In this document: positions 4,742 to 34,856 of the stretch, piece by piece
Numbering within the stretch: the stretch's first letter is position 1
Layout: the number at the start of each line of letters is the position of its first letter
Source: Nemertoderma westbladi
Lineage: Eukaryota > Animalia > Xenacoelomorpha
DNA: 41,139 nucleotides
Assembly (NCBI GenBank): GCA_032718475.1
Contig: JAUCBJ010008213.1
Location: 1 to 41,139, forward strand
Direction: 5' to 3'
Program-made: the position numbers and the translations under genes
The notes under the pieces: model-generated
Database searches by the model: none
The model's input: the letters and a program-made list of their open reading frames with translations, nothing else
Told to the model about the DNA's origin: nothing

Positions 4742-5199
4742 GTTAGTTATTAGTTTTATTTATTTTTCTATATATTCACGGTACGGGTTACCGGTACCGG
4801 TATAAGTGCCGTCGATATTTATGCAGCAGTAGCGGTATTTAGTAACCGCATTATCTAGTTTGCATTTTGGTTCTCTCAACTACTTTCCTTTAGTTTAGTT
4901 TGTCAACTTGTAAAATTGACCTCTTTAATTTTCTATATTATTGCCTGAAGTTCAATTTACTTTGATTTATTTAGTTCATTAATGCATAGCAGCATAGCAC
5001 ATTATCTTGTTTGAATTTTTTTACAGCTATTAATCGGTATCTATTAAACTGATACAGCACCGCCAGTCTAGTCGGTATGAAATGTATTTATCTGACCAGA
5101 ACATTTTACACCTTCGTTCTATTATGCACAATCCATTTCTAACTCTATTGATTATCATTAAGGAAATTGAATTAACCATAATTTATTTATTTTATATAG

Positions 5200-5355
5200 T
5201 TGTTGAGGATTTGGATAAAGGCAGAGAACCTCTACCTTCTATCGAGGCTGTTTATATAATGGCGCCTTCTCAGTCGTCAGTTCGACGATTCATGGACGAC
5301 TTCCGGGATCCCCCGAACTTTATGTACCGAGCCGCCCACGTATTCTTTACTGAAG
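5200..5355 (+). CDS. STXBP1: Munc18/STXBP1 coding exon 3
   Basis: TAG acceptor; (L)[51 protein letters not shown]; GTTTGT donor. Confidence 0.95.
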
Positions 5356-5443
5356 GTTTGTAACTCAACACTTTATATACCGTCAGCCGACATGTTCTAA
5401 GGTACAGGCCTATATAATTATAATTAGTTACTTTATTTTACAG

Positions 5444-5974: not shown

Positions 5975-6825
5975 CGCGTTGCTCTTAAATAATAACTTAT
6001 AGAGCGCCTTTCTCCTTTCTGGACTTTATTTCAATGCGTTATAAAAGATTTCACAATAAAAAATTCACTGAATTAAAAACAAAGACAACGCAAAGCTAAT
6101 GGCGGAAATGAGGTAATAAAAAAGAGATGTTCTCTTAGAGTTAGATGACATATTCCAGTTTAAGAAGACGTGTTTTGACTTTTGAGACCCTTCTTGAAGG
6201 CATTTAATGTTGGCGTACCTCGTAGGTTGAGGGGTAGAGTGTTCCTTCCATTATTATTGTAGGAGCAGCGATGGAGAATGCCCGTTTCCCATAGTGTACA
6301 AGGTGATACCGCGGAACAGCTAGCAATCCCGCTTCACGGGATCGTAGCTGGCGAGGCGGAGGGGGGTTGTGAGGTGTCAGTAGGTCTACCGAATATGATG
6401 GTGCACAACCGTTTAATATATTTGTATGTTAGGAGAGCTATTTTGAACTGAATGCGGCGATTAATCGGAAGCCAATGCAGGTCTTTAAGGACTGGAGTAA
6501 TGTGATCTCTCTTCCTAGTACCAGCCCGCAATCGTGCCGCCGCATTCTGTACGTATTGCAATTTCTTTATAAACGTAGCTGGTAGACCATTAATAGAGGG
6601 AGTTGTTAATGTCCAGTTTGCTTGTAACTGTTAGGGCATGAATCAATATTTCGAGGTCGTGTCTTGACAAGTATATTACGTAATTGAAAAAATGAATCAC
6701 GTACTGTTGCTGCAATTTATTTAGAAAAGGTTAAGTGTGAGTCCATTACAAACCCAATATTGCGGGCATGCGCGCTAGTGACTATTGTTTCAGCACCACA
6801 CTGAACTGTCGGAGGGATGAAGGCG
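5975..6825 (-). mobile_element. 5'-truncated L2-clade LINE, degenerate ORF2 C-terminus and 3' UTR
   Basis: Translated pieces ARNIGFVMDSHLTF and LQYVQNAAARL..GTRKRDHITPVLKDLHWLPINRRIQFKIALLTYK are typical of L2 ORF2. Ends are approximate. Confidence 0.85.
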
Positions 6826-9800: not shown

Positions 9801-10407
9801 TAATTATTTCAGGCTCATCAACTATTGTAGGGAGTCTTTTGACCCGAATAATTTGTTCTGTGGGTTCTGTATTGCCTAAGTCTGCGCTAGTTAGTTGTCT
9901 TCTAACCGCCGGGGGCAAATTAGGCAATTTGTGGCGGTGAGATGTTTTTCTACGCCTGCTTAGACGAGATCTGTTTCCTCCGTCTTCAGGATCGGTCGTT
10001 TCGCTTTCCTCCGATGATGTGTATCCCTGGCGCTTGGGAGTAGATCGACTCCTCATCTGCATTTGACTAGCAGTTAACTGTTTATTTATGCAGTCTTGCG
10101 TCTCTTGAAGATTTTCCAACTCCAGTTGTGTGGTCTCTTCAGACGCTCTCTGTTCTGCTTCTGCCAATGCTATTGCTGCTGCTGCTTTGGCTGCTTCTAC
10201 TGTCGCTGCAGCTTTTGCTTCTGCTGCTGCCTCTGCTGCCTTTGCCGCTTCCACTGCCGCTGCCGCTTTTGCCTCTTCCACTGACGCTGCCGCTTTCGCC
10301 GCTGCTACTGCCTTTTTGTCCTCTATCCGCCTTTTCTTTACTTGTTCTTCTTGGACTCTAGCGAGGCGGAGTTTTTCATCAAATTCAGCTTGGTTAGCAG
10401 CTAACAT
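6790..10407 (-). CDS. BEL/Pao Gag-protease polyprotein, truncated just before RT
   Basis: KFNGDEMKWLPF..EKLRFLIKCLEGPPK (DUF1759-like Gag); CALCDGTHRLSAC / CYNCLRPGHQRRTC / CGAKHHILLH knuckles; LLDSGS protease; GRYEIGLPF..NRPLAEKRIAQLHRRL pre-RT motif. The last ~9 codons derive from the L2. Confidence 0.9.
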   Translation of the reverse strand: MLAANQAEFDEKLRLARVQEEQVKKRRIEDKKAVAAAKAAASVEEAKAAAAVEAAKAAEAAAEAKAAATVEAAKAAAAIALAEAEQRASEETTQLELENLQETQDCINKQLTASQMQMRSRSTPKRQGYTSSEESETTDPEDGGNRSRLSRRRKTSHRHKLPNLPPAVRRQLTSADLGNTEPTEQIIRVKRLPTIVDEPEIIRPVIPKVTSVLETPVLPELNSKFPLHSTTLPVPGRTVHENIPVLEAEREIKDLSPVVPRQPATMLATPAAAVEWVEEGRRGMNLLLGQMQETVHQLKGTVRESRAELQEVQQSIALERDKLVNIQKGIPIPPVTLCQPVRSEVLHAQGVEPTRIYTASEVETPIANPIKGDYRPVINDIPYRPDNDPRNLYTDNSILNNTMAQESFTRQMARTEARQAVKVGEIVKFNGDEMKWLPFNEYYKDSIQNSVLSNREKLRFLIKCLEGPPKLMALTFIGHPEGLRQVWDTLNIRYGNKDNIAKYLYAKLVAPRNFLSSGIIEFSDEIQEICRQLDWLGKSHEYQSSMVIGAVVSTLPKGGVCTRWDKKVLYMNEQQRRSPTMADLMSFLDGEVKLQLIKQSREKTSENKVSEKPASRRRVTPVCYNDDGESQASQEEDSGKDTDRSYYVDKTSKDVSKYKTRNNDRREQVAKTPPQSPNKMHRRKPEEKTRVHQVTQGKVSNIKPNCALCDGTHRLSACAEFLKKSLVDRRAVVWDKRLCYNCLRPGHQRRTCYSDIKCGAKHHILLHSEFERDKQSQVSEPELHVQFSDVNDTDQESEMEGFYTDEFSDANESCYLINTAVYRALTYEKDTNNEFPPTTFAKQPSWKAPTSNVGIREFPVVQVRVHGPNHSYIVNTLLDSGSTGTFIDQELAEDIFAGQPKFRTKLNMSGIMQVWKSTLTADYYVGVLSTPQDKLGAQGIRSVKMVAIKNFATTQADLYNWDEDESIQHLKIPRFQTDYPGVQILIGQNAHEALETLEKRPAQPQPLQTYAVRTRVGWYFTGPSRRTLEERMPQEQVCQVNDWEVESSEVDELTEGTPYSSDNDDIYQLFDEENTIDLLTENQTWKNQVNLCQLIRPSEPIAYNDELNDEIERYNARTRDELAVRFFTQELVEPNSYDKALSIEEERAKQIQETTTRFLKDQGRYEIGLPFRKREPRFINNRPLAEKRIAQLHRRLHPSDSSVWC

Positions 10408-10439
10408 TTCAGCATCGATTGAGTCTAACCACGCTGGGT

Positions 10440-11489
10440 TCCTTCACTATTAGGGGAAAGTCCAGACAGCCGTCTCCTCAACTCTTCGTCTCCTAGGAAT
10501 CGCTGATAGTCGGACAGATAAATGTCTATGGCGTCTCTCGTTCGTGGTCTCTCTGCGGTCTCTTCGCCTTCCACTTGAGAAAGGGTGGCATCGGTTGGTT
10601 CTTCATAGGTTAGTCTCTCAGACAGCTGGGATTTCCACTGGTCCGTTTCTTGTACTTTGAGACCTACCCGCTGGAACCAAGTTTTGACAGCAACCTGCAG
10701 CGACGTGTCCTGTCTTCTTTTGGAAGTTTCCTCAAAGGCTGATAGGATTAGTCGAATGCGTAGGGTTCTTTCGCGTACTTGATATAGCAGTTCTTCCTGC
10801 TCTTAAGGTCCTTGGGGTTGTCGAAACAGTTGTTCTTCTAATCGCTCTAAGGAGCCGAAGAATCCCGGCACATATCCTGCTGCCGACCTCTTCCAAACAG
10901 CTGGATCCATCGTATCTTTAGCCACTCCCATCCTGTGTATATCTTCCCAAGTAGCTTCGGACAAATCTAACGGGAGTCCGGGTCCGGGAAAGTTCCATTG
11001 TGACTCGACAATAGACATCAATTCTTCCCTGGCGTATCCCGCATAATTATCTTGGGTCGCTCGCTTACTTCTCGCCCAATCGGCTTGATGTTCCTCCACC
11101 GCAATCAATATAGTAGTTAGCACTGCGGCAGGAAGGGTGAGAAGGGGGTCCGAGTAGGCTTTAGCCGCCATCTGCAATCCGCGTTCGGGAGTCAGCTCTA
11201 CAGTATCCGAACTACTGGAGCTATCTGATCGCTGGGAACAAGTTTCTTGACTAGGATGTTGCTGCTGTTGGACAGCTGCTTCCTGGTTCCGCTTGACTTG
11301 GGCCCGAGTTCCGATGATAGACCTAGGGTGTTGGATTAGCTTAGGGTCTGATACTACTACTGGAGGGATGGCCTTTCTTTCAGTAGGAGGTGAGCTGAAC
11401 TCCTTTCTTAATCGCTCCACACTCCTATCTGTGTCACAGATGGTTGTATCGATTAGACTGTCTGACAGGTTTTGCTGGGTGTCAGACAT
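10440..11489 (-). pseudogene. Probable disrupted N-terminal part of the same BEL/Pao polyprotein
   Basis: The 228-aa ORF from ATG 11489 stops at 10803, but the same frame stays open afterwards (EQEELLYQVRERTLRIRLIL...RRRLSGLSP) to ~10430. A frameshift near 10445 joins it to ..WLDSIDAEMLAANQ. Confidence 0.6.
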
Positions 11490-12824
11490 GTTTAGCTATA
11501 CAGTTGAATGCTTACTGCTATAGTTACAGTTAAAGCAAGTCTAGTAATTCAGTATGACCGTGGGCCTAGTACTGGTAATTTATTGCAGTATATTAGAATA
11601 CCGGTATGCACTTATAATATATATAAGTATTGTAAACTAGTTTTGTCACAGAGTACCGGTATATAAATTTAGCACAAATATATATAAATATATAATAGGC
11701 CTATCGTGAATACCGGTATACAGCTTACACTTATAGTATATATAAGTATAATTATGGACTAGAATTAATTACCGAATACCGGTATGATTTCAGCTCAAAT
11801 TTATAGAAATAAATATAATAAGCCTATGGTAAATACCGGTATGTCAATTATTTTAGAATAATTGAATTTCTGAATATTTTAGGGTTACTTGGTTACTTTA
11901 ACTTACTTTATTACCGTTATTTAAGCAGTAGTCCAACTGATATTGAGACCTAGTTGTTGTATGGCAGGCCTACTATTTATAAATCGTTTGAGTTGATTTA
12001 TAATATATATATACCCGTTTAAAAGGGTTTTGTCAATATTTGAAATAAATGTTATTATTTCTGGGGGAGTCACTACACAGAAGCTGTGCGCTCTCAGTGA
12101 AGTGCTACCTATGGGACACTAAAACAGATAATTCTAATTTACCTAAGTTACTTAATACTACAAATTACTTACGATACGGGTGAGATTAAATCTCTAATTA
12201 AACACAACAAAAATATTACGTACGAAATTTTAGGGTAATTTTACAGGAAGTCTACAAACCAGCCTAACAAAGGGTTAGATTTCTGGTTATTACAACGGAC
12301 AGGGTACTACGGTATTTGAAAATAATAAGTAGTAGTAAATATATTGCACTGTCCAGATAGGAAAATACCACCGCCTGACGACCTATAGCCGTATCGCTAT
12401 AGGTACTACGTTATGTATCACGGAGTGTTCCTACCTGGAAGTTAATTACCGCGGACTACCAGATCCAACGTGCCTATTAACCACTTTACAACACAAATAT
12501 ACTGCCTACACTAATTACCCTCGGAAAGCACTGTACACTAAACCCTAAATTAGGTACAAGTACTGGTACAACAAATAATCAGTAGTTAAATATACTTGAA
12601 CAGTTAAAAGAACCACGGCATCTGCTGGAGTGACCGAAGCACAAAGTCACCAGTCTTTTCCTACGCCAAGCAGCCCGTGTAGTACCGGGGTTAATTTAAC
12701 TATAACGGTATGTGTAACAAGCACAATTACTGTAGGAATAAACTTGGGGACATGAATGTTGCGAATAATTGCATAAACTCTGAATAATAAATATTACGCT
12801 ACCCGTACAGAATACTCAAACAAA

Positions 12825-13360
12825 TACAAACCAAACGCTGGCAGACTACCACCAAGCCTAAATAAACTACCGTATGTGCAGATTCCGAAATGGTTAGTTA
12901 GTATGCGTTCTAACACGGTAGTACGACTTATTCTTTAAGAGGGGATTGACCTTACAGCTATGGCTGCCCCAACTTACTAACTGGCACTTTATCAGACAAA
13001 CTCTACACACGCAGCAATCTCTTCAGACCTAATAATAGCTAGACAACAATCCAGCCTACAAAATATCTGAGTAATAACTATTACGGTACCTGAACAGACC
13101 ACACAAACAAACACAGGCCAAAACGTTGGCAGAATACTGTCAAGCCTAAATAAACTACAGTATGTGCAGATTCCAAAATGGTTAGTTAGTATGCGTTCTA
13201 ACACGGTAGTACGACTTATTCTTTAAGAGGGGATTGACCTTACAGCTATGGCTGCCCCAACTTACTAACTGGCACTCTATCGGACAAACTCTACACACGC
13301 CGTAATCTCTCCAAACCCAACAACAATCTGACAACAGTCCGGCCTACAGTTATCTGAACA
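12825..13360. repeat. Tandem duplication (~288-bp period, 2 copies) in the BEL/Pao leader
   Basis: CAAGCCTAAATAAACTAC...GGCTGCCCCAACTTACTAACTGGCAC is near-identical at 12853 and 13141. Confidence 0.9.
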
Positions 13361-17000: not shown

Positions 17001-17399
17001 CTCTAACTGTCGGGGAAAACGTTGGATAAATATTTTATATATAATAATATTGCATTTGAATGGAAATACACAATGCTATCTTGTGTAAAATTAGAAGAAA
17101 GTGATCAAAGATAGGCAACAGTAACAAACACATTGAGGAATAATATCATTTGTGTAATAATTGATTAGAGTTTTATGGTCTTCGAAGTTACAATATACCA
17201 AATTAATTGCACTGCACCTTTACTTTAATAGGCCCACAGTACTACATAGCAGATACACTGAAAAAAGATAAACAGGCCAAACAAGAAAGAAAAGGCTAAC
17301 AAACAGTATAACAATATAAGCAATATAACACCAAAATATATCTCTAACCAAACTGACAAAAAAAAATACAAAAAATTTCAAAAGGGAATAAAGGAAAAA

Positions 17400-18502
17400 A
17401 AATATAAAAATAACCCACAGATATTAGTTATGTATTATTATGTAGCCAGATCCAAAAAATACCTAGATAATTATATTTTGTGCATTTCTTAGTTTTGTTA
17501 CTTCGAAACTATATCGAGCTAGCTTGATTAATTTGTCCTTGTTATTTCTAGTCATAATTGGTTGGTTGGGGTATTGGTGAAGAATCTTTCTATGTATTTA
17601 TTCCTAAGATCTCTAAAATATAAGCACTCAAGTAAAAAGTGGTATTCGTCCTCCACGCACCCTTTGCTACAAAGTTGGTATAAACGTTGATCGCGGGGAA
17701 TATTGTACCATCATCGGCCAATTTCAATTAATAAATTGTGTGAGCTACACCTAAAGCGACTTAAAACCCTACGAAGAGCAATGTGTTTATCGAAGTGATC
17801 AAAGTAAATTTCAAGATCGAAAGTATATTTACTATACAAATTCCATTTCGGTGAAAGATTAATAGATCCCCACCAAGATCGAATATATTGATCTTTAATC
17901 CTAGTTTGTACCTCGTTCAAAAATATACGTTCATTGCTAAACATACTCTTCTTCCCAAACATTAGAGAAACCTAAAGAGTCTAATAGTTGTTTCGTCCAT
18001 AATGCCCAGATTGAACAATTTGTTGAGTTAATAAGGTCTGATTGTCTTAGACAGTCATACAAGACTTTAGAAGTCTGTAGGTCGGAAGTTTAAGTATTTT
18101 TAACCAGTACTTCTTAATGATAATCAATTTTCGAACACAGTGGAAGAGTACCTGTTTCCCCAAAAACCATGAAGTTGGGCGGTGAAGTCTTGACAACAAG
18201 AAAGTATTTTAAGAATTTCAGATTTACTCGTTCTACTGACTATGCCTTGTGAATCCCCATATCACGCTTCCATAAAGTAGTATAGGTTAATTATAGAGTT
18301 GTAATGATATAAAACGATATCAAATGAAATGTGTGGTAAAGAGATAAAAAAATTTAATAGGGAAAAATAAGCTTTCTCGCCTTTGGATTGTGCTACAGAA
18401 AATTTCCCACTACTTGTAAAATAATCCCTAAATAGTTGTACTGGTTTACTATTTCAACTGGAGTACCATTAAAAATCCACATTAAATTACGAGGAATTTG
18501 AC
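17400..18502 (-). mobile_element. 3' part of a degenerate APE-RT LINE (RT thumb to C-terminal Cys/His motif)
   Basis: ..IPRNLMWIFNGTPVEIVNQYNYLG.., LSRFRCSSHNLLIEIGR, CVEDEYHFLLEC. Continuous with 25682 onward once the transposon is removed. Left boundary approximate. Confidence 0.85.
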
Positions 18503-18564
18503 TATGGCATACTTTTAGTATTTTTATTCGACATTTTATTTCCCCTTGATATTCTTCTGAATTT

Positions 18565-20010
18565 AGTCGCGAGATAAATGATTAAACTCGCGAGAAAATA
18601 ATTAATCTCGCGAGATAAATGATTAAACACGCGAGAAAATAATTAATCTCGCGAGATAAATGATTAAACACGCGAGAAAATAATTAATCTCGCGAGATAA
18701 ATGATTAAACTCGCGAGAAAATAATTAATCTCGCGAGATAAATGATTAAACTCGCGAGAAAATAATTAATCTCGCGAGATAAATGATTAAACTCGCGAGA
18801 AAATAATTAATCTCGCGAGATAAATGATTAAACTCGCGAGAAAATAATTAATCTCGCGAGATAAATGATTAAACTCGCGAGAAAATAATTAATCTCGCGA
18901 GATAAATGATTAAACTCGCGAGAAAATAATTAATCTCGCGAGATAAATGATTAAACTCGCGAGATAAATGATTAATCTCGCGAGAAAATAATTAATCTCG
19001 CGAGATAAATGATTAAACTCGCGAGAAAATAATTAATCTCGCGAGATAAATGATTAAACACGCGAGAAAATAATTAATCTCGCGAGATAAATGATTCAAC
19101 TCGCGAGAAAATAATTAATCTCGCGAGATAAATGATTAAACTCGCGAGAAAATAATTAATCTCGCGAGATAATTGATTAAACTCGCGAGAAAATAATTAA
19201 TCTCGCGAGATAAATGATTAAACTCGCGAGAAAATAATTAATCTCGCGAGAAAATAATTAATCTCGCGAGATAAATGATTAAACTCGCGAGAAAATAATT
19301 AATCTCGCGAGATAAATGATTAAACTCGCGAGAAAATAATTAATCTCGCGAGATAAATGATTAAACTCGCGAGAAAATAATTAATCTCGCGAGATAAATG
19401 ATTAAACTCGCGAGAAAATAATTAATCTCGCGAGATAAATGATTAAACTCGCGAGAAAATAATTAATCTCGCGAGATAAATGATTAAACTCGCGAGAAAA
19501 TAATTAATCTCGCGAGATAAATGATTAAACTCGCGAGATAGATGATTAATCTCGCGAGAAAATAATTAATCTCGCGAGATAAATGATTAAACTCGCGAGA
19601 AAATAATTAATTTCGCGAGATAAATGATTAAACACGCGAGAAAATAATTAATCGCGCGAGATAAATGATTCAACTCGCGAGAAAATAATTAATCTCGCGA
19701 GATAAATGATTAAACTCGCGAGAAAATAATTAATCTCGCGAGATAAATGATTAAACTCGCGAGAAAATAATTAATCTCACGAGAAAATAATTAATCTCGC
19801 GAGATAAATGATTAAACTCGCGAGAAAATAATTAAACTCGCGAGAAAATAATTAATCTCGCGAGAAAATAATTAATCTCGCGAGATAAATGATTAAACTC
19901 GCGAGAAAATAATTAATCTCGCGAGATAAATGATTAAACTCGCGAGAAAATAATTAATCTCGCGAGATAAATGATTAAACTCGCGAGAAAAATACACATC
20001 TCGCGAAAAA
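18565..20010 (+). repeat. Left subterminal array: 41-bp dimer (21+20 bp), roughly 70 CTCGCGAG monomers
   Basis: [CTCGCGAGATAAATGATTAAA CTCGCGAGAAAATAATTAAT]n; count estimated as length/20.5. Confidence 0.97.
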
Positions 20011-20110
20011 AATCGCGATTGGCTGTTAATTGGGACAGTAGGAAACGGCCATCCAATAGCAGCAGAGGAAATACCCTTATAGGTGCAATAGGGATATATA
20101 TAATAGGTAT
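20011..20110 (+). promoter_or_regulatory. Putative promoter of transposon ORF2: two opposed CCAAT boxes plus TATA-like sequence
   Basis: ATTGG 20018-20022, CATCCAAT 20050-20057, TATATATAA ~20095; layout mirrored at the other end of the element. Confidence 0.45.
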
Positions 20111-20794
20111 TAAATAGGCCTTCTTTCTATATCATTCATTTCAGCATACCGTAACATTATCTCTGCCTCCTGTCTGTATTAAGGGGCGTCGTGTCGAGTT
20201 TAGGGTAGCATGTTTGTTTATACAAGCCAGAGTTGCAATATTGTATTTGTACTTTGGTACAATAGCCGCTCGGCGCGGCGGTCCCTATTCTGGACTGAAT
20301 TTTTGTTTAGCAGTAGTCAGATGCATGATTTCTACTTAATGTGATTCTTTTAAATTCAATAAAAATTAATAATTCAACAAACCATTAAATTGATGTACTA
20401 TATTAAGTGTTACAGTTTATAATTAGCGCCCATACGCCCATGTGAAGAATACCAGGATTTCACTTTTCGGACGACCTTTTATTGGAATTTTATATTAAGA
20501 TTTTTAATTTTTTTTAAATTTATCTTTAATAAATGTTTTATATGCGTTTATTTCTGTCTTATAACCTGTACATACATATACTATTTCGTTTATTGTTTTG
20601 GTTAAATTCAGCCCTTCTGTAACCTGTGTTTTTGGTCAAAACCTGGTATTCTTTACATGGGGGGTAACCGCAAAGTGAAATATAACGGCAGAAAGTCTGG
20701 TATTCTTCACATGGGCCATTATTAGTATTATGCTGTTGATACGTTGGCTGAATTGGGCCAAAATTAATTATATTATGAATGGGAGAATCTTTTA

Positions 20795-21030
20795 GGCTCG
20801 TTAAGCGGTGTGGTCTCGTTACGGCTAATGTCTCGTTACGGCTAATTTTATGAGAGATTAGCCGTAACGCGACTTTCAAAGTCGCGGTACGGCTACTCTA
20901 AAAGTCGCGTTGCGGCTAATTGTCGCGTTACGGCTAATTGTCGCGTTACAGCTAAATTTTTGAGAGATTAGCCGTAACGCGACTTTCCGTAATGCGACAT
21001 TAGCCGTACTGCCACTGCGCCCGTTAAGCC
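20795..21030. repeat. Small foldback/MITE-like module of GTTACGGCTAAT repeats in both orientations
   Basis: CGTTACGGCTAAT-like units forward at ~20817, 20835 and 20885-20955; ATTAGCCGTAACGCGAC reverse at ~20857 and 20967, with ATTAGCCGTA at ~20999. Confidence 0.7.
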
Positions 21031-21223
21031 AAGGAATAATGCCTGTTCACCACCACATGTAAGTCACCATTTCATTCTAATAATTAATTTTGGAATTCAG
21101 CCACCGTATGTAGAAAGCCTACATACTTTACAATATAAAACATTTATTAGGAAAATATTATTGACAGATTGCATTTGTAGCTTGAAAAAATATTTGACAA
21201 TTTCCCGCCGTCAATGCAGAACT

Positions 21224-22492
21224 ATGATCTGCCAGAATTGCAGTAAAACTCTTAGTGCTGAGGATAAGTTTTGTTCACATTGTGGCACCAGTTGCGATAT
21301 TGCTTCAGTTCCTAGTTCAAATAGGCGTGAGTTAATAGCTGAACTAAATCGTCAATTTGCACCATATGCATCGGTTCCAACTGGGTCAGTAAGCCGACGA
21401 CGAATAACTCCATCTCGTGCACGTCTTTCTTCTCCCCGTGGAAGGCCAGCAGCAACGACTTTCAGTAAGGCAATGGTTGTAGTACGTGGGAAGCATTATA
21501 AAGATGAATTAATTACTATCAAACATTCTAACATAGTGAAGCATTGCATGCTCGATTTCTGTAGCATAGATACAGCTGAGGAAATTAGAAACAAAATCAT
21601 ATCTGTGCTTGAAACTCACCCGAGTTGCATTACTGAGTTTACTTATGTAAAGGCCCCCAACAGGGTAGTTACTCCCATATGTGTTAGCGAGAATTTCAAG
21701 TTTAATGGTGATGCCATTTCTTGTCTGTTTCCAGCGAAAAGAGCAATTTATGTTCAACTTAAAGAAGTTGATACTCTTGAAGAGGAAGATAGTCCATTTT
21801 CTACTTTGGATTTACCGTCTTTTATGAGCCCCAATGTGACTGGTGGAAATATTCAATCGGGCAATGTCATTGAACAAAGCACCGAAAGCTCAGGTATACA
21901 TGTAGGAATGCTGCAGGCTTGGGATGGGAGAGACATTCTTGAAGCTAGCCCGGATGATGTAATTGATTCCGATGTCGAGGTTATAGAAGAAGATTCTGTT
22001 GTTAAACAATATGATGTCAAGAAAATGACAAAATTTACTACTACAGAATTAAAGGAGATTGGTAAAGTCCAGATTCTTTATGATTACGATACATTATCCC
22101 CGAACTATGTAGAACCAAGCCAGTTACAAGACATATCAATACGCCGTACATCTGCTTTACAGGATTTAATACGGAAGATTGAAAAGATAGATATAACTCA
22201 GGGGATTATGGTTCACTACTACGATGAGTCTGGATGTGACAATGGAGGTCTCAGGCGAGATATGTTTAGTACGGTTATTGGAGCCTTGCTGAACTCGTCA
22301 ATGTTCCTAACAATTGATGATTACATTGTGCCTGCATTAGTAGATGTTGTTAAGGTGTCGAATGGGAGTTTTAAAGCAGTCGGTAAAATTATTGGTAGCA
22401 TTCTTCTACACGGCGAACAGTTGCTTAGCATCCTGCATCCTATTGTGAGCAGGTATATTGTGTTCGACGCAAATCCCATCTTGGCGAATTAA
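21224..22492 (+). CDS. Transposon ORF2: N-terminal zinc ribbon, central globular domain, acidic linker, N-terminal part of a HECT E3-ligase-like domain (no C-lobe)
   Basis: First ATG at 21224: MICQNC..DKFCSHCG. ISIRRTSALQD..IMVHYYDESGCDNGGLRRDMFS..FKAVGKIIGSILLHG resembles the HECT N-lobe signature (V.F.GE.G.D.GG..RE.F). Stop at 22490-22492. Confidence 0.75.
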   Translation: MICQNCSKTLSAEDKFCSHCGTSCDIASVPSSNRRELIAELNRQFAPYASVPTGSVSRRRITPSRARLSSPRGRPAATTFSKAMVVVRGKHYKDELITIKHSNIVKHCMLDFCSIDTAEEIRNKIISVLETHPSCITEFTYVKAPNRVVTPICVSENFKFNGDAISCLFPAKRAIYVQLKEVDTLEEEDSPFSTLDLPSFMSPNVTGGNIQSGNVIEQSTESSGIHVGMLQAWDGRDILEASPDDVIDSDVEVIEEDSVVKQYDVKKMTKFTTTELKEIGKVQILYDYDTLSPNYVEPSQLQDISIRRTSALQDLIRKIEKIDITQGIMVHYYDESGCDNGGLRRDMFSTVIGALLNSSMFLTIDDYIVPALVDVVKVSNGSFKAVGKIIGSILLHGEQLLSILHPIVSRYIVFDANPILAN

Positions 22493-22675
22493 TATCCCGC
22501 CTCAATGTTTAATTCTCAATTTAGGGAAAGGAGCAGGTTACAGTGGCACGTTATTTTAACCAAAACAATAAACTAAACACAATAGAACAGGTTACAGTGT
22601 CATTTTTGAGAGTAATCAGCTGTTATTTGCGTCGAATTTCCCCTGGAGAGGGATAAATTTTTATTGCGTCCAGTT

Positions 22676-22702
22676 CCCCCCCCCCCCCCCCCCCCCCCCC
22701 CC
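22676..22702. repeat. C27 homopolymer between the convergent ORFs
   Basis: Direct read. Confidence 0.95.
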
Positions 22703-22774
22703 TATCTGAACTTTTCTTAGGTTCTCGCATTATTATAAAGAAAATGGAAAGAAAATAAGGAGAACAATTATTGT

Positions 22775-24413
22775 TCAGTTAGAATCAAGAATTGTATTAT
22801 TAACCACAAATTCCTTGCAATATAGGTAGCAGTCAAGGCCATTGTTATGGTTATTACCATTGTTGTCAAACAGTTCTGCAATTTCGCCCAGTAAACGTTG
22901 TTCAGCTTCTACAGATAGGGGAATATTGATGGGTCACACCAACAACAGATTGTTGTTCGTCCACTACAGGACCCTCCCAGTCTATTCCATAATTACTTAC
23001 TTCACCTGGCTCGTCCTCTATGGAGGTATCTTGAAGTCGACTATTTACGAAAATCTTTCGCGGAGTCCAGTAGTGTTCAGTGCGCAAACCGTGATTATTC
23101 CACCCAATAACGAATTCATTCAGTGCTGTATTGATGCGCTGCTTGAATGCCGTATGTAAACAATATATGTCATGAACATTTGAGGGGTCTAAATATTGAT
23201 TATCTTCAAGCCAGTGAAACAGTTTATAGTACACAATAATAACCGTTCGAAAAACATCCCTCCATAAACGTTCGATTCGTTGGTTGTGTGTACTTCTACC
23301 AGCTATGAAACTTCCCCGGTTTGTACCTCGACGATTTATCATATACTCTGCAACACTTCTGTTTTCACCTCCTTTGTCTCCCCTAACTCTAGAGGGCAAA
23401 CCATATTTATCAACAGCCTCTAGAAACAGAGGCAACACTGTCGATGCACAATTGTTACCAGACATTTGTAAGTAAGTAATTAGTCTAGAATGTCCATCAA
23501 TTCCGCCATGCAGGACTAAATTCCATCGTATGAGACTATGGTGTCCATCTATATGCCAAAGTGAGTTGGCCGCCTTTACGCTGTACTTTCGACGAAAGAC
23601 AAGCGCTCCCCATCTAGATGCGGATGAAATTGGATCTACCTCCTTAAGGATTCTATGAACAGCATTTAGTCCAGCAAATACATTTCTGCTACGAAGTATC
23701 GAGTTAACAAATCTACACCCAGCATAAGGGTATTGTTGGTGAATTTCTCCAATTATTCGTTTTAAATCTTCTTCATTAGTGTCGTGATAACGACGACGCA
23801 CACCCAGTTCATATTCTCGCACTCGATCCATTATTGTCGATCTGCTTACACCATACATTTTTGAAATCTGGGTCCATCTAAATCCACTTTCATGTAAGAA
23901 CGTGAGGATTTCCTTTGATATATCAAATTTCGGTCTACCACATCTTGACTCTAGATGAGTATCGATCGAGTTAATAGTTGGTACTTGTACAGCGGCAGTA
24001 GCTAAGGTTGTGCAACACGGACTAACTGGTATGGGAGTAGCTATTACTGTCTCTGAAAGTTTATTCAGATAAGTTAGATAATTCTCTCCTGCAGTATTAT
24101 TGTTAGGCGCATTTAGCCCATTTATAATGGTTAAACTATGTGAACAGTTCTCCAGTCTCGCTAATAAATGTTCCTTTAAATCTTGATGCAAGCGCATAGA
24201 ACTCGAATCAGTACTGTTCTCGATAAAGCGTTCGCATTCTTTAATTACGTCTTCCAAATGGTTCACAAAGAATTCGACGGGATCGTTTCCACCATCCATA
24301 ACAGTTAACTGTATTAGTAGGCCTAATAGTTCTGAATTAGTGTTTCTATAGACCTCACATGAAACAGCAGTAGCAGTGGCCAGTAAAATATACAACAAGT
24401 GATACGAATACAT
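22775..24413 (-). CDS. DDE transposase (rve integrase-core, IS3/IS481-like) with HTH; probable frameshift near 22935 in the C-terminus
   Basis: [25 protein letters not shown] (HTH); catalytic [25 protein letters not shown]. The called ORF ends at 22902, but a shifted frame continues [28 protein letters not shown] to 22775. Alternative start at ATG 24299. Confidence 0.9.
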
Positions 24414-24469
24414 GCTTTTCTTACGATAAAATATAACATAATAGATTCAATTATGCTGAAATGGCGTTG

Positions 24470-24560
24470 TAATCGCTTTTAAATATAGCCCTTACTTAAA
24501 TAACTATTGTGATTGGATGTTTGTTTCGTGTTGTCATAGAGAGCGCCAATCACGATTGTT
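24470..24560 (-). promoter_or_regulatory. Putative transposase promoter: two opposed CCAAT boxes plus TATA-like sequence
   Basis: Minus strand ATTGG 24550-24546, CATCCAAT 24519-24512, TATATTTAAAAG ~24487-24476, 60-70 bp upstream of the ORF. Confidence 0.55.
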
Positions 24561-25619
24561 CTCGTGAGATTATTTATTTATCTCGCGAGATTAATTATTT
24601 TCTCGCGAGTTTAATCATTTATCTCACGAGATTAATCATTTATCTCGCGAGATTAATTATTTTCTCGCGAGTTTAATCATTTATCTCGCGAGATTAATTA
24701 TTTTCTCGCGAGTTTAATCATTTATCTCGCGAGATTAATTATTTTCTCGCGAGTTTAATCATTTATCTCTCGAGATTAATTATTTTCTCGCGAGTTTAAT
24801 CATTTATCTCGCGAGTTTAATCATTTATCTCGCGAGATTAATCATTTATCTCGCGAGTTTAATCATTTATCTCGCGAGATTAATTATTTTCTCGCGAGTT
24901 TAATCATTTATCTCGCGAGATTAATCATTTATCTCGCGAGATTAATTATTTTCTCGTGAGATTAATTATTTTCTCGCGAGTTTAATCATTTATCTCGCGA
25001 GATTAATTATTTTCTCGCGAGTTTAATCATTTATCTCGCGAGATTAATTATTTTCTCGCGAGTTTAATCATTTATCTCTCGAGATTAATTATTTTCTCGC
25101 GAGTTTAATCATTTATCTCGCGAGTTTAATCATTTATCTCGCGAGATTAATTATTTTCTCGCGAGTTTAATCATTTATCTCGCGAGATTAATTATTTTCT
25201 CGCGAGTTTAATCATTTATCTCGCGAGATTAATTATTTTCTCGCGAGTTTAATCATTTATCTCTCGAGATTAATTATTTTCTCGCGAGTTTAATCATTTA
25301 TCTCGCGAGTTTAATCATTTATCTCGCGAGATTAATTATTTTCTCGCGAGTTTAATCATTTATCTCGCGAGATTAATTATTTTCTCGCGAGTTTAATCAT
25401 TTATCTCGCGAGATTAATTATTTTCTCGCGAGTTTAATCATTTATCTCGCGAGATTAATTATTTTCTCGCGAGTTTAATCATTTATCTCGCGAGATTAAT
25501 TATTTTCTCGCGAGTTTAATCATTTATCTCGCGAGATTAATTATTTTCTCGCGAGTTTAATCATTTATCTCGCGAGATTAATTATTTTCTCGCGTGTTTA
25601 ATCATTTATCTCGCGACTA
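24560..25619 (-). repeat. Right subterminal array, inverted relative to the left, roughly 50 monomers
   Basis: [CTCGCGAGATTAATTATTTT CTCGCGAGTTTAATCATTTAT]n is the reverse complement of the left unit. Confidence 0.97.
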
Positions 25620-25681
25620 AATTCAGAAGAATATCAAGGGGGAAATAAAATGTCGAATAAAAATACTAAAAGTATGCCATA

Positions 25682-28600
25682 TTTGACCACCTTTTCTAAA
25701 AACAACTATTTTAGACTTATATTATCTAGGTTAACATTTAGACCCCAAAATTCACAATATGATTCTAGAACGCTGATTGAACTTTGTAAACGTTTGGGAA
25801 TTCTAAAATAAGGGGTTCTAAAATAACAATGTCATCAGCGTATAGTAGAAGAAACAGACGCACGTGATAAATAGTGATACCCTGTATCCCACTCCCACTA
25901 TTACGTAATTCGGACTCCAGGTCATTAACAATCAAGTTGAACAATAGCGGAGACAGACAGTCTCCTTGTCTGACTCCTATCAGACATTCGAAAGAACCAG
26001 ACAGTTTTCCAGCACTACGGCCGCACCATTTAATGCTACTGTATATAATACTTTTTATCAATTTAACTATTTTTCCTGAAAACCCGAGACCTGACAGTTT
26101 CATCCACAAAGCCGTCTAACAAAGGCATGATCTATATCTGATTTAATCACAAATATTTGATATGCGGTAACTGTAAACTGAATCTGAAACCAGCCTGACT
26201 TTCAATAAGCACACCAAAACAATCCGTCCAAAATGTTAATCTGTTATAAACACCAAATAATTTTTAAAACATACAACAATTTTTAATTTATAAAACATCA
26301 ATTCGATGTCAGAAGTTTGCCAATAGTGCTTAACATCGTGACTCCCCGGTACTTCCCTGGGTCTAATCTCGAGCCTTTATTTTTATATAATGGGGAAATA
26401 ATACCTACTGACCAGGCTGAAGGAAAACAACCGGTAAATAGCACTGCATTGAATAATAATGTGATAATCGGTACCAACTGGTTTTATCCCTCAATGAAAA
26501 ATTCTGAAATAAGACCATCCTCATCTGGGGCCTTAGTAGTATAGGTTTGCTCCTCTCCTATACTACTAGCCTTACCTCGTTTCATATTACCAATTGCTTC
26601 CGATATTTCATCTTCCACAAGTGGCTGTGAGACATGAATCGAAAAAGAGTTTACTTTCGGCTAAATCTATTCCTGTGTCTCCTGATGGTACAAAACCGAT
26701 GTATTCAAATTTATTCCCACTATTGGATTTACTAAATTTTTTAAAATATTTTTCAAACTCCGAGAGTTACAGGAGAGAGGTGGTTTCACTTTTCTTCTGT
26801 AGATCATTTAATTTTCGCCAGTATCTTTTAGAGTTAGTAGTTTTATAATAATTTCTTAAGCAATTAACTTGATCCTCCAAAAACGGATATCTAGTCCACC
26901 GCTGCGCCGCTTTATACTCTTTACGTTTTGTTTGTACAAGTACAGTAGATTCTACCGTTTGCCTAATGTTGTTCGACTTTCGAGCACTATTAAAAGATAA
27001 TTTCGCTTTCCTGCATTCATCATTAAACCCAATTGCACCAGGTAAAATATTTGCATCACCCTGACAATTAGAGCACGAAAAGTTATTTTCTGCGACATCT
27101 ATGATTGTTTTACATAAAATATCAGATGCGCGTGTTACAGTATTTCCAGAAATATCACCCTCACAAAGTAGGTTGGTAATTTAATTAAATCTTAATTGCA
27201 CCGAATTTGATTCTAGAGATTGCCTAAAAGCATCGGCATGGTTAGGATGCCAAACGTATCGTTTATTAATGGGACTTCATCATCATAGGCAATGTAATCA
27301 AGTAGATTAGCTGTTCTAGAATTCAAATCATCAACTAATAAAATATCAGCATTGCCTATATAGGAAGCAATTCCTTTCTCAATTATATCAAACATTGACG
27401 CTGTGTCTCCACTATAACTAGTCGAAGACTCCGGTGGGATGTAAACACAACATATAAATACATCATTAGGTAAACCTAGAGAACTACTAATTTTAATCCA
27501 ACATAAGTCCTCAGTATGGGTTTGTTGTTTTGGCACAGATAAAAATAATTTGTGAGAAAATCACGGTAATAAATCATCACAGCCCCACTATACCGCTTAG
27601 CATTTGGGTGTTTGTATTTCCTATAAATATTTATAGGTTCCACAAATCCTTCGATTTCAATATTTATCATTGAGTTTGGACCTAGAAAGGTCTAATTACA
27701 TATAAAAAAAATCATATTTCTGGATGAGAGAGTGAATATCTGGTCTTTCCACATTTAAGTGTCCAACTCGCAGAGTCTTGATCTGTGACTATGGGATTTA
27801 ACCCACTCCTTGTTGGAATCAGTCAGTTGGTGAGGGTACATGTCCAGGCGGGTAATGGGTCCCCTGAGTATTCTTGACCTTCCACTCAGCAGACCCACCC
27901 GCGGTTTCTCGTTGAAATACTATCATGTTGTTATAATTAGTTTGATCACCTATTCCACCATTTTGACCTCGGCCACTACCCCTAATTCCTGTTCCGATTG
28001 TAGTTGTACCTTAAAACCCGCTGTTATATACCCAAGTGGTACTCTGATGATCAGCCTTGTAGATAGAGCTGCTGTTTGTCGGTATAGTTTCAGCTCCTGC
28101 ATATTGAATACCATTTCTATTTGTTCAAATGCTCGATTCTTTCCTCTGATATTGACTGGGGTCGTAGGAATTCGTTGATAAGTTCTGTAGTTAAGTCCAT
28201 ATTTGTTATGAAGGGTCGGGGAGGGAAGTCGATCTTTATTTATGGGTTCACAGTTGTGATAATTAAAGACAAAGCGATGTAGTCCTCTTCTCCCTGTTGA
28301 CACAATATTCCACACAGATGCTTGCTTTGATTTGGTGTATTTCTCGCGCGGGGGAATTTCCTCGTAAGGATCGTCTTCCCATCATCCAGATCCATTCCTA
28401 AGTATGATTTAAACATAATCCTCTTCGTTTGTCACCTTAGGTACTGTTGCATCTCTTGTTGGCTGGACTAGAGCAGAACCGCAATCGCGAGATAAATCAT
28501 TTAGCTCAGAGTTAGCATCAATACCGATTCCGTTTGGTCCAAATATATATTCTCCATTTCCCCCTTCTGGTTAAAGGAGGAGGAGGAGTACCTGTTCTTG

Positions 28601-31088: not shown

Positions 31089-33794
31089 CAAGCAGAAATA
31101 TGATCGGAGCAAGTTTGTGGTGCTGCTTCCCAGTGGTTACAGTCACTATATCGTGCGGTTCTAGTTCCATTTCACTCTTCCTTTGGGATTTCTCTCTAGT
31201 GACATTTGCTGGCTTGGCCTCTTGATAATAATGTATTCTGAAGCGGGGTGAGATTTCCCGATACGCAGACTGCTGTCAACTGATTGCATGCAATAACGTC
31301 GAGGTCAGTTGCATTTTACATTACTACTGAGGTAAAAAATTTTACTCAACGTCCTTGAATAATCAAATAAATAATTAATTGAAATATAATATTTAATCTA
31401 ACAATATCATTACAAAAATCTGCCATACATTGTAATCCTGATGTAAGCAGGTCATATTCATACAATGACCCTGTATGACGGAAAATTTAATAAATTAAGA
31501 TTAAAATAAAGTAATCCAACTTAGAAAAAGTAGTTTTCGCACTTCCGGTACCCGTTGTTACGATTTCCAATCGCTACTCTATTCTGGGGTTGGGAAAAAC
31601 TAGTTTCCCTCGATGATTAAAAATTATTTCATTTTGCACATCTTCTACAACATCGACAATGGTATACAACTATAGTGTCAATCGAATTCAATCCATCTCC
31701 ATGATTTCTCATCTCTTGTATAATCCAGTCCCTGGCCTTAAGTCATACGTCTTACGCCCTTACGTCATTTTATGACGTCATAAAAATGCAAATAATCATC
31801 TGTGTTCTCATCATTTTTCCAAATCAAGACACAAACAAAAAAACAACAAAAATGATATTATTATTTAGCTTTTGATACCAGAATTAACCAAGTATAACGG
31901 TTTTACGATGAATCCAATTAACCATAAACCGATCGAAGCGAGCTATAAAGAAAAGAGGGCACAGTAAAATAGTGATATTGGTATGAACACTGAGTTAATT
32001 TATTATTAAATGTTATATAATGTTAATTAAATGCTATGAACTAAATGTTGTAATTATGGAATATTCTCGCACTCAATTTCAAAATTGCATTTGCAAAATC
32101 ATGTGCAAGAAACGATATCTTTCCGGCATCTGCATCATCGCTTAGTATTGCACTTCTTGCTGAAACAAGTAATCGTCGCCCACAGGATAGAAAAGAAGTA
32201 CAGTTAACATTATTACATGAAATAATTGTGTCTTTTAACAATGTAATAAAAACAGCTATATATGGCGTATAACGCAAAAATACCCTGGTAATCTTTACCA
32301 CTTTCACCACAATCTATACAGTAAATTAGTATAAAATATGTATAATACTGTAGTTGCCGTGGAAACTGACGTAGTAAATACTCAAATCACCACAAATTCT
32401 TGAGATTGTGAACAGCTCACGGACACACAAAACAAATGGCTATAAAAAACTTATGCTCAGGGAGCAGAAAGTCTACCCAAGGATTTTTACACTCATATAT
32501 GTATGTCCTACTGGGATTCGGTGAGAAATCCCGTCCACCCCAAAATTCCTACCCGGTCTAAGACTGGAGTAGTAAGGGATATCTCGAATGGACTTCGGAT
32601 TCGAATGGTATCAACCTTAAGAAGAGAACTTAAAGGGGGGGGGGGGGGAGGGGGGGTAGCACTGCCCTATTTTGGAAATTGTAAAAACAATTTTAATCCT
32701 ATCATGTGCGGAATTTAATAGAGATTTCAATCCTCAAGCAGTTTTCTAATGTATTTTCTCAAACTCACTGGAGCTGAGCAACAGATATGGACCCTTGCAT
32801 CAGGGGCAGCAGATGACTGCGATGGCCATACTGCCTTCACAGACGTACTGAGGAAGTGCCGAGAGGCTCACAATGCGTAGAATGAGTACCGGTACTACAG
32901 TACAGCGGCCAAGAATGCAGTTAAGGCTGCATCTAGGTCCCCGAACAGGCATTACTCTGTTAATCTACAGGAGCTAATAAACCAACAGGTTGATGCCATC
33001 AATGATGCTGACGACAGCAGGCAATCATCCCAGGCATGGAAATCGATCAACTTACTTACTGGGCGGAAAAGCCAACCAACCACCACGGTTAAGGCAGAAT
33101 CACCAGATGATCGTGCCAGTAAAGTAGATAGTGTCCCCCATTGAGGTTTTTAATATGCCTAAATATTTGGTGCAAATTTGGTGCAAGCAATTATGAGATA
33201 AACAAAATGTTAAAAAAAATTTAAATTAAATTCAAACAATTAAATAGAATAAATGGCCTGCAGAGGAAGCAAATACACGTAACTTTTGAATGGCCAATTA
33301 TCAGCTATTTCCCAATCAAATTCAAATATGTTTACATATTTGTAATCCTTGCACTGCCAGCTTTCTATTGCCACCAACAAATTACTATAAAATTTAAGGA
33401 TAACTGCTGGAACGAACTGAATGACTGACTGTGGAAGAACGACTGGTGCAATATCGCTGGAGACTCTTTTTTCAATCCCTTGTAGCTAAACATTGAAAGC
33501 GAAAATATAAATTCTGGCTCACCCACTAAGGAGCAGGTAGGTGAAACTAACTCCGTTTCAAATTTCATGCAATTTATTACTTGCATTATATGGGATTCCT
33601 GAGGAAATTTTTGCGGGAATCGTCGATGGTTCGACGATATTTGCGTCTACCATTGATGGTGACACAAATTAATTCGAAGTATTATGGGGAGTTCTCCAGG
33701 GTGGCCTACTTGTACCATTATTATTCATAATTGTGGTTGTCTATGTTCTACGCATATCCTTAGACAACCATAATGATGATGGTAACACCCCCTA

Positions 33795-34856
33795 TGTTGC
33801 GATCCTAGATGGTTCGACAACATTTGTGTCTACTGTTGATGGTGACACAGAACCATTTGAAGTGTTATGGGGCATCCTTCAGGGAGACACACTTGCACCA
33901 TTCTTGTTCATAATTGTGGTTGACTATGTTCTACGCATGTCCTTAGATCATCATAATGATGATGGGGTGATGATAACTCCACCTACTGGCTCCAGAAGTC
34001 GAGGAAATCCTGCCAAGTACCTAACTGATCTAGACTTTGCTGATGACTTAGGAGTACTCTCAGAATCAATAGAGGGAGCCCAACGGCTCCTCTGCTCATT
34101 AGAACATGCTGCTTCTAGTGTTGGTCTTTTTATTAACTCCAGAAAGACCAAAATTTTTACAGTTAACTTTGAAAGTTCTCAGCAAGTCTCTGATCGGATG
34201 AGCATAAGCTCAAAGGATGGTATGCTTGAGCATGTGGGCGACTTCTGTTACCTGGGATCATGGATCCGGAAGTCAGGTGAGGACCTTCGAATACGTAAGG
34301 GAAAGGCATGGGCAGCCTTGAATAGGCTTTCCAGGATTTGGAAGTCACCGAGAATTAATCGGAAACTTAAGGTCCGATTATTTAGAGCAGCAGTAGTTCC
34401 AGTACTCCTCTATGGGAGCCCATGCTGGGCTCTAACTGCTGAGGACACCAAATCTCTGGATGGCACATTCACAAGAATGCTACGCCGGGTTCATTGTGTC
34501 AAATACAATGCACACATCTCCAACCAGACACTATATAACATTGGAGGTGTCTCATTGCTTCCCCCAAGCTTGACACTATAATAAAATCGCCTCCACTTTG
34601 CAGGAAATTGCTTTCGCCGTGAGGATCAGCCAGTGCATAATCTTGTACTTTGGCATCCTCATAGAGTGAATAAGCATGGTGGACAGCCCATGACTTTCTT
34701 GAGACGCATCTTAAAGGACACTGGCCTTGAAGATGCGGATGATCAAGCAATTGTCATGGGTGATAGGGAGTTGTGGCGGCGCAATTTTGTCGACAAGCCG
34801 GCACAGCATTCTTAAAAATGCAGCTGCAATGCAGCATGCCGATACTAGTAGTAGTA
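33795..34856 (+). mobile_element. Younger 5'-truncated RTE-clade LINE with (TAG)n tail and 13-bp TSD
   Basis: GILQGDTLAPFLF..DLDFADDL..FCYLGS..VLLYG; tail TAGTAGTAGTA; TSD GTAACACCCCCTA at 33782-33794 and 34857-34869; one in-frame stop at 34579-34581. Confidence 0.9.

Follow-up and report, generated by a model that had tools for sequence, protein, structure and literature searches.

IS3EU/GingerRoot transposons are defined by TAYGG..CCRTA ends and terminal inverted repeats (TIRs) of more than 30 bp in the accessible parts of two papers (PMC10045372, PMC12730594). IS3EU encodes two proteins, as cited in an excerpt of PMC8232023, and the available portions of four papers describe two oppositely oriented genes (PMC10045372, PMC6839031, PMC12730594, PMC8232023). 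For example, the partner gene of rust-fungal IS3EU is an alpha-kinase, as given in the accessible text of PMC12730594. IS3EU is widespread and its structural description is almost nil outside Repbase, according to excerpts of PMC8232023 and PMC11934779. In the IS3EU/GingerRoot literature searched, part of which was accessible as excerpts, a HECT partner and subterminal arrays were not described; Repbase entries and Kojima 2019 may have them. Here, we analyzed a stretch of 41,139 nucleotides (the window), which contains one such element. It agrees with IS3EU/GingerRoot (Repbase IS3EU-1_CVi, -1_SK, -3_DR, -4_DR, -3_CGi and -6_CGi) in ends, 6-bp target-site duplication (TSD) and transposase motif type, and also has two oppositely oriented genes. 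In contrast, the accessible publications give TIR lengths of more than 30 bp for fungi and of 100-150 bp for GingerRoot, whereas the inverted repeat in the window exceeds 1.1 kb. The IS3EU type is already known, and the element in the window differs from its relatives by much longer end arrays.

Boundaries and genes of the element

The element occupies 18503..25681 (7,179 bp, TATGG...CCATA) and contains two convergent ORFs. Both ends begin with TATGG, and the element is flanked by exact 6-bp copies of TTTGAC (18497..18502 and 25682..25687); alternative TSD lengths of 4, 5 and 7-11 bp gave mismatches. The unique TIRs at the left (18503..18566, plus strand, 64 bp) and right (25617..25681, minus strand, 65 bp) are 98.5% identical, and their sole difference is one C in a homopolymer. 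The host site is a decayed LINE. Its reverse-transcriptase region lies at 25688..26115 on the minus strand (Pfam RVT_1, E=2e-9), and it continues to the left of 18497; several stops and frame changes indicate that it is dead. When the two LINE flanks were translated separately, they ended and began with the peptides of the initial annotation and were in phase after one TSD copy was discounted, which supports the boundaries. The initial annotation had proposed the exact TSD, the TATGG termini, a near-identical outer TIR (given as 62 bp), convergent ORFs and a LINE frame restored by removal of the element, and all of these were confirmed.

The transposase gene is located at 22775..24299 on the minus strand. 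The protein possesses an rva_4 core (Pfam, E=1.6e-78) and N-terminal HTH domains (HTH_23 and HTH_21, both below the cut-off). The catalytic residues are D251, D308 and E343 (DD34E), and an HHCC motif is absent. The core motifs agree one by one with those of Repbase IS3EU-1_CVi, -1_SK, -3_DR and -4_DR in a comparison by eye with the text printed in the supplement of PMC10045372. This IS3-like DDE transposase, the TA..TA termini, the TIR of more than 30 bp and the 6-bp TSD support the IS3EU membership that had been suggested. The assembled ORF (24299-22902) encodes 465 amino acids; the conserved C-terminal tail is in another frame and runs to a stop codon at 22775-22777. Contigs from two of four short-read runs (X1-X4), namely X2 and X3, have two extra bases at 22931 as compared with the window. 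The frameshift could be an assembly error in the window because all three covering runs also differ from it by one base at 21114.

As in other IS3EU elements, two proteins are encoded; however, the second gene is truncated. ORF2 (21224..22492, plus strand, 422 aa) comprises a zinc ribbon (around aa 3-22), an unnamed domain common to relatives (around aa 76-185) and only the N-lobe of a HECT domain (around aa 296-414), and it spans positions 17-148 of the 324-position HECT profile. Its final residues derive from a nested MITE-like repeat (22466..22712), which marks the cut-off point. This high-copy repeat has poly-G/poly-C ends, lacks its left end and was recognized by loose ends at 22466 and 22573 (120-140 contigs per run in X1-X3). 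A further nested stretch at 20433..21092, in which summed contig depth is 10^4-10^5 versus about 10^2 in the genes, contains a MITE-like element with 26-bp inverted ends (about 20435-20717) and high-copy pieces with 17-18-bp repeats; these repeats likely belong to an intron or UTR on the 5' side of ORF2. Nested repeats occupy about 13% of the element. The reading of the element as an intact system is not supported: ORF2 is cut off, the transposase is frameshifted, and two interior stretches are nested repeats, all of which the initial annotation had missed.

The relationship of ORF2 to HECT proteins was examined in several ways. Its N-lobe region matches Pub2 (E=9e-5), and Atlas placement gave a nearest cluster in which 47% of members are HECT proteins (0.92) and a G2E3-like cluster as second (0.88). 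The unnamed N-terminal domain was grouped by Atlas with unnamed mollusc and cnidarian clusters only. A direct search of ORF2 gave no Pfam HECT match, and none of 3,759 candidates in a single-sequence word search reached E<=0.001. A profile search retrieved 25 proteins; most were of the L044 type, and G2E3 was not among their names. Two structure models had low pLDDT (41.6 and 46.0), and no hit of the fold search reached E<=0.001. The likeness to HECT E3 ligases and G2E3-like clusters lies in the N-lobe region. The N-terminus differs, with the zinc ribbon and unnamed domain rather than PHD/RING fingers. Because a profile search found no HECT C-lobe or catalytic cysteine anywhere in the window, the ORF2 product of the window copy cannot act as an E3 ligase. 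An intact E3 in the window copy was rejected. Of the HECT-like, E3-like partner originally proposed, the N-lobe similarity stands and the ligase does not.

Conservation of the gene pair in relatives

Related loci often carry a HECT gene. Among 49 loci whose flank was 1.5 kb or longer, 24 had a convergent HECT-like frame downstream of the transposase and none had one on the same strand, according to an HMM whose construction included four of these loci. An HMM built without any locus detected the HECT gene in 15 of 38 families (flank of 1.5 kb or longer) and in 11 of 18 (3 kb or longer), but not in the other seven of the 18. The catalytic cysteine (TC) motif is kept in 11 of the 12 C-lobes examined. 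The HECT frame lies upstream instead in 5/29 loci; thus, gene order varies. One locus (L017) has an AAA-ATPase frame in the place of the HECT gene.

Tandem repeats upstream of the transposase are also common: they were found in 25 of 46 families, as compared with 27 of the 119 windows that served as controls (P=1.6e-4), and their period was 19-24 bp in 17 of these 25 versus 5 of the 27 controls (P=6e-4). The control windows are not independent, since some 20 long loci supplied all of them and most belong to a single assembly. In 16 of the 25 families, TAYGG precedes the repeat by 160 nt or less. In four bounded relatives (L030, L031, L057 and L058), the TSDs are exact at 6 bp, and both ends carry inverted repeats of about 100-380 nt. 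No subterminal repeat was detected in 21 of the 46 families. Some, but perhaps not all, of the missing repeats and HECT genes are explained by short contigs, decay and introns. The repeats in relatives are 60-570 bp long, which may be an underestimate since short-read assemblies can collapse arrays. The window copy has the longest arrays in this sample. The transposase, convergent HECT gene and subterminal repeats are thus a common design, and the uniquely integrated system proposed in the initial annotation was rejected. What is special to the window element is the length of its arrays and a CCAAT/TATA-like module common to both ends.

Terminal arrays and promoter-like modules

The left array (18567..19991, plus strand) contains about 70 monomers of 20 or 21 bp (TRF: 34.8 x 41 bp, 96% matches) and the right array (24559..25616, minus strand) about 51 (TRF: 25.7 x 41 bp, 95% matches); each 41-bp unit consists of two monomers, one of 21 bp and one of 20 bp. 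The arrays are inverted, and their assembled lengths of 1.43 and 1.06 kb sum to 34.6% of the element, in agreement with the first estimates (about 1.45 kb, 1.05 kb and 35%). The long inverted arms built of tandem repeats also fit the foldback-like ends described. Each left-array monomer has a CGCG-centered palindrome, and the 10-mer TCTCGCGAGA is exact in 33 of them; it is exact in 20 right-array monomers, where variant monomers lie in duplicated blocks.

One promoter-like module lies inward of each array, as had been claimed. At the left (20008..20110, plus strand), an inverted CCAAT pair is followed by a TATA-like box, and a homologous putative promoter is located upstream of the transposase (24472..24560, minus strand). 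Alignment of the two modules scored 68, and the best of 300 shuffles scored 50. Because its pattern was picked after inspection of the sequence, the strict motif count does not serve as independent evidence. A looser pattern gave three matches, a number reached by 11 of 100 shuffles, and is not significant. The CCAAT pair was absent from all six bounded relatives checked.

All four short-read runs revealed TIR copies dispersed among different flanks: the TIR start was joined to other flanks in at least 5, 3, 6 and 2 contigs of X1, X2, X3 and X4, respectively. As rough values that do not give copy number, contig depth relative to the flank was about 13-fold at the TIR in X1 and about 23-fold in X2, and mostly about 1- to 4-fold in the genes. 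The site flank was covered by contigs of X1 and X2 but not of X3 and X4. The X1 and X2 contigs match 17300-18530 without difference and reach 28 nt into the TIR, below the 31 nt required to count as bridging. No empty-site allele was found among the loose ends listed. In a 1,004-nt X4 contig with the same species label, the TIR is found together with the inner left segment and about 0.2 kb of array. Because the array of this short derivative is only about 0.2 kb long, arrays of kilobase length are not a constant feature of the family.

Possible roles of the end repeats

We consider it probable that the element is an IS3EU/GingerRoot cut-and-paste transposon in the form of a damaged and likely non-autonomous copy, and that its arrays are ordinary subterminal repeats, likely transposase-binding sites, which have probably expanded in a minisatellite-like manner to about 70 and 51 units. 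An alternative is that the arrays form a methylation-sensitive enhancer or promoter block, so that one methylation switch would control both inward genes and possibly end binding. Each monomer contains TCTCGCGAGA or a one-base variant, that is, the vertebrate CGCG element or BANP motif (PMC6192621; accessible part of PMC10206803), with 53 exact copies in the arrays and none in the remaining 38.5 kb. These copies lie upstream of the TATA-like boxes, with the homologous modules directly inward of both arrays, and in human cells the motif activates transcription proportionally to its number of copies and loses this activity upon CpG methylation (accessible text of PMC6192621). Furthermore, repeat units contain CG in 18 of 25 relatives, and five bounded relatives have 4-10 CpG per 100 nt in their ends versus 0.5-1.1 in the interior. 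However, relatives keep the spacing and change the motif (TCGA, ATCGAT, GCGCGC or none with CG), and the repeats of L040 are AT-rich without CpG. Varied motifs with equal spacing are more readily explained by transposase sites than by a single host factor. Conservation of the motif is described for vertebrates, whereas in the window it forms the end repeats of a transposon whose host is probably an invertebrate (CpG observed/expected outside the arrays is mostly 0.6-1.1), and the match may be a coincidence. Thus, the enhancer explanation is unlikely.

It is somewhat less likely still that the kilobase length itself is selected, as in a true foldback transposon with cooperative, high-specificity synapsis or a large hairpin. 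The two arrays are 94-96% identical to each other, they fold well as single strands (z = -6.8 for 164 nt), and Galileo TIRs are 0.5-1.2 kb (PMC3688188). However, any palindrome array folds well automatically, the derivative with about 0.2 kb of array has the same species label, and no more than 4-15 units are present in relatives whose TSDs are perfect. Inflation of real repeats by the assembly is the least probable explanation, and we regard it as very improbable. The window differs from contigs by small indels at two positions (21114 and 22931) and by a single TIR base (18539); therefore, it may carry consensus errors. Against inflation, the TIR is continuous with the first monomer in contigs. 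Moreover, the arrays have nested block duplications and an order of monomers and variants that differs between left and right, which a collapsed or looped assembly would not readily produce.

If the repeats are transposase-binding sites, the HTH domains would bind a CG-centered palindrome once per two helical turns, which would aid end pairing. Cutting would occur at the TATGG tips, and insertion would yield the 6-bp duplication. The extra array length may be mostly the product of slippage and unequal exchange upon a small functional core, in line with the scattered variants and duplicated blocks in the arrays. Each gene would be transcribed inward from a CCAAT/TATA module duplicated along with the TIR. 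In intact relatives, the HECT protein may be an active ubiquitin ligase that serves the element, in the simplest form by control of the transposase or of a host silencing factor. A dual use of IS3EU ends is also conceivable but doubtful: the CpG palindrome would dock the transposase and, in the window family, act as a methylation-sensitive CGCG-type activator of the duplicated promoter. In that case, one methylation switch would govern end recognition, transposase and ubiquitin ligase, and array length would tune the switch.

A HECT partner that usually keeps its catalytic cysteine, together with end repeats spaced by two helical turns, gives testable ideas on IS3EU movement and the role of the second gene. 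It also suggests that many "G2E3-like" annotations in aquatic animals are transposon genes. Although the window copy is broken, its arrays, the longest found, make the candidate binding site obvious. Galileo/Foldback elements of the P superfamily likewise have a short conserved outer TIR and long, internally repeated inverted arms (PMC3688188). The likeness is in architecture only: Galileo has a THAP/P-type transposase and no HECT gene, whereas the window element has an HTH/IS3-type transposase. The first binding site in Galileo is about 70 bp from the end (PMC3688188), and the array of the window element starts at base 65.

Boundaries and gene content of the element

The element occupies positions 18503-25681 between exact copies of TTTGAC, and TATGG is the start of the element at each end. 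The host site is a decayed LINE, which is present on both flanks (RVT_1 match). As the initial annotation claimed, the LINE frame resumes when the element is removed: the two LINE sides share one reading phase. The left flank is identical over 1,231 bases to contigs of two short-read runs from two studies (X1 and X2), and these contigs enter the TIR by 28 bases. The unique TIR is 64 bp at one end and 65 bp at the other, with a single indel between them. Inward of the TIRs lie inverted arrays, which comprise 34.6% of the element and are built from a 41-bp dimer present in 34.8 and 25.7 copies. Every array monomer (20 or 21 bp) contains a CGCG-centred palindrome, and all 53 occurrences of TCTCGCGAGA in the window fall within the arrays. 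On its inner side, each array is followed by a diverged segment of 90-100 bp that carries an inverted pair of CCAAT boxes and a TATA-like box. The alignment of the two segments beats 300 of 300 shuffles, which supports reading the two putative promoters noted initially as homologous modules that were duplicated together with the TIR. This module is absent from the six bounded relatives compared.

The minus-strand transposase ORF (22902-24299) encodes HTH domains; D251, D308 and E343 mark its rva_4 core. Among 5,588 candidates, 1,934 homologues were obtained at E<=0.001; those with names come from molluscs, one cnidarian and one tardigrade. In a by-eye comparison with the accessible part of the supplement of PMC10045372, the core corresponds motif by motif to IS3EU-1_CVi, -1_SK, -3_DR and -4_DR. 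The ends and TSD also agree with the IS3EU definition in the portions available of PMC10045372 and PMC12730594. Judged by its sequence, the element is a real IS3EU copy, which is damaged.

The damage affects the second gene (ORF2) and perhaps the transposase gene. Two nested high-copy repeat stretches (20433-21092 and 22466-22712) have summed contig depths of 10^4 to 10^6, as against approximately 10^2 in the genes; the nested repeats are MITE-like and account for 12.6% of the element. The 22466-22712 repeat has lost its left end and is positioned exactly where the similarity of ORF2 stops. A small element at 20800-21040 contains repeats of 17-18 bp, both direct and inverted, and has an 8-bp direct repeat at its flanks. 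Contigs of three runs skip approximately 20806-21037, so this small element is a separate insertion within another high-copy repeat. A HECT profile made from relatives has 324 positions, of which ORF2 (21224-22492, plus strand) covers 17-148; this profile found no HECT C-lobe anywhere in the window. ORF2 has no direct HECT match in Pfam, and its assignment as HECT-type rests on a PDB match to Pub2 (E=9e-5), Atlas and the relatives. The conserved tail of the transposase sits in another frame (E=1e-5; profile of 87 homologue tails). Two extra bases are present at 22931 in contigs of X2 (all depth) and a further run, X3 (most depth), and no row of X1 has them. Therefore, either this copy carries a variant here or the assembly is in error.

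HECT genes and end repeats in related loci

A metagenome scan for relatives gave 491 loci, of which the best 80 were kept. Among these, 49 loci have 1.5 kb or more of flank. Downstream of the transposase, within a distance of 6 kb, 24 of them have a convergent HECT-like frame and 0 have one on the same strand. When a locus-free profile was used and loci were merged into families, the counts were 15/38 for flanks of at least 1.5 kb and 11/18 for flanks of at least 3 kb. An upstream HECT-like frame was found in 5 of 29 loci. In L020, L022, L028 and L054, the upstream frame is divergent or tandem, not convergent; thus, gene order differs among lineages. Pfam HECT exceeds the cut-off in L044, L067, L070 and L079, and 11 of the 12 C-lobes checked have the catalytic TC motif. 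The HECT gene of intact relatives looks catalytically competent. The unnamed N-terminal domain of ORF2 also occurs in L040, L054, L004, L064 and L066.

Upstream tandem repeats were counted in the loci whose upstream flank reaches 450 nt or more (57 loci, 46 families), the remaining loci being excluded. They occur in 25 of 46 families versus 27 of 119 control windows, which are mutually non-independent, and 17 of the 25 repeat-bearing families have a period of 19-24 bp, versus 5 of the 27 controls. In four relatives (L030, L031, L057 and L058), the element is complete: both termini have TATGG and inverted repeats, the 6-bp TSDs are exact, and a HECT frame is convergent with the transposase. Repeat tracts in these and other relatives are 60-570 bp. 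The arrays in the window are at least 2.5 times (left) and at least 1.9 times (right) as long as the longest of these tracts, some of which may have been collapsed in short-read assemblies. On this sequence comparison, the ends of the element are an extreme form of a structure common in the IS3EU superfamily.

Several other arrangements were observed. L062:9154-13367 and L049 have TATGG ends, which in L062 form nested pairs, and the HECT gene was undetected in both. Related transposases are accompanied by a Ulp1-like protease frame (L002:14216-15121; weak, below the cut-off) and an AAA ATPase frame (L017:2665-3741), and a CUE domain precedes the HECT-like region at L054:88-1149. The cargo of IS3EU may be rich in ubiquitin-system domains.

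According to the accessible text of PMC8232023, described IS3EU elements encode two proteins and are published in Repbase only, and that of PMC11934779 calls IS3EU structure largely unexplored. We found no paper linking IS3EU with HECT or with end arrays in the literature, as far as the texts were available; Repbase, Dfam and Kojima 2019 lay outside this search and may record the HECT gene. The term HECT occurs 0 times in PMC10045372, PMC6839031, PMC12730594, PMC6431247 and bioRxiv 2021.09.26.461848, and the available portions of PMC10853768, PMC13623101 and PMC2837046 contain nothing on either link.

Mobility of the family and possible roles of the arrays

The TIR start is joined to other flanks in at least 5, 3, 6 and 2 contigs of four runs (three studies), among the rows listed. 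The family is mobile and mixed. By contig depth, a rough measure, the TIR is far deeper than the genes, which suggests that many non-coding derivatives of the element exist. One X4 contig (1,004 nt; X4 is the fourth run) carries the TIR, approximately 0.2 kb of array, an oppositely oriented array piece and the segment 19995-20220. Thus, array length varies within the family.

By analogy with IS3-type and Galileo-type elements (PMC3688188, in its accessible part), the most likely role of the arrays is in transposition. The HTH domains would bind the palindrome every two helical turns, the element ends would then pair, the DDE core would cleave at the tips, and insertion would yield the 6-bp target duplication. 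We also considered that the array doubles as a methylation-sensitive activator. This idea is worth testing because the palindrome is identical to the CGCG element of human cells (PMC6192621, available portion), although the other motifs in the repeats of relatives favour coincidence. For the arrays as transposase-binding ends, the scattered variant monomers and duplicated blocks are consistent with minisatellite expansion, by which the arrays may have grown from a small functional core.

Other features of the window

A host gene of the Sec1/Munc18 family is represented by an exon-like frame at 5034-5363 on the plus strand (Pfam Sec1, E=1e-7). A second LINE fragment (33673-34581, plus strand; RVT_1, DUF6451) has a 183-bp internal duplication at 33625-33965. 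The minus-strand ORF at 6790-11495 (1,217 aa; DUF1759, E=2e-12) is Gag/protease-like and, from its sequence features, typical of a BEL/Pao LTR retrotransposon. It has a 230-aa upstream frame and stops short of any polymerase region. Upstream of these BEL-like ORFs, at 12800-13340, a segment of approximately 300 bp was seen by eye in two similar tandem copies.
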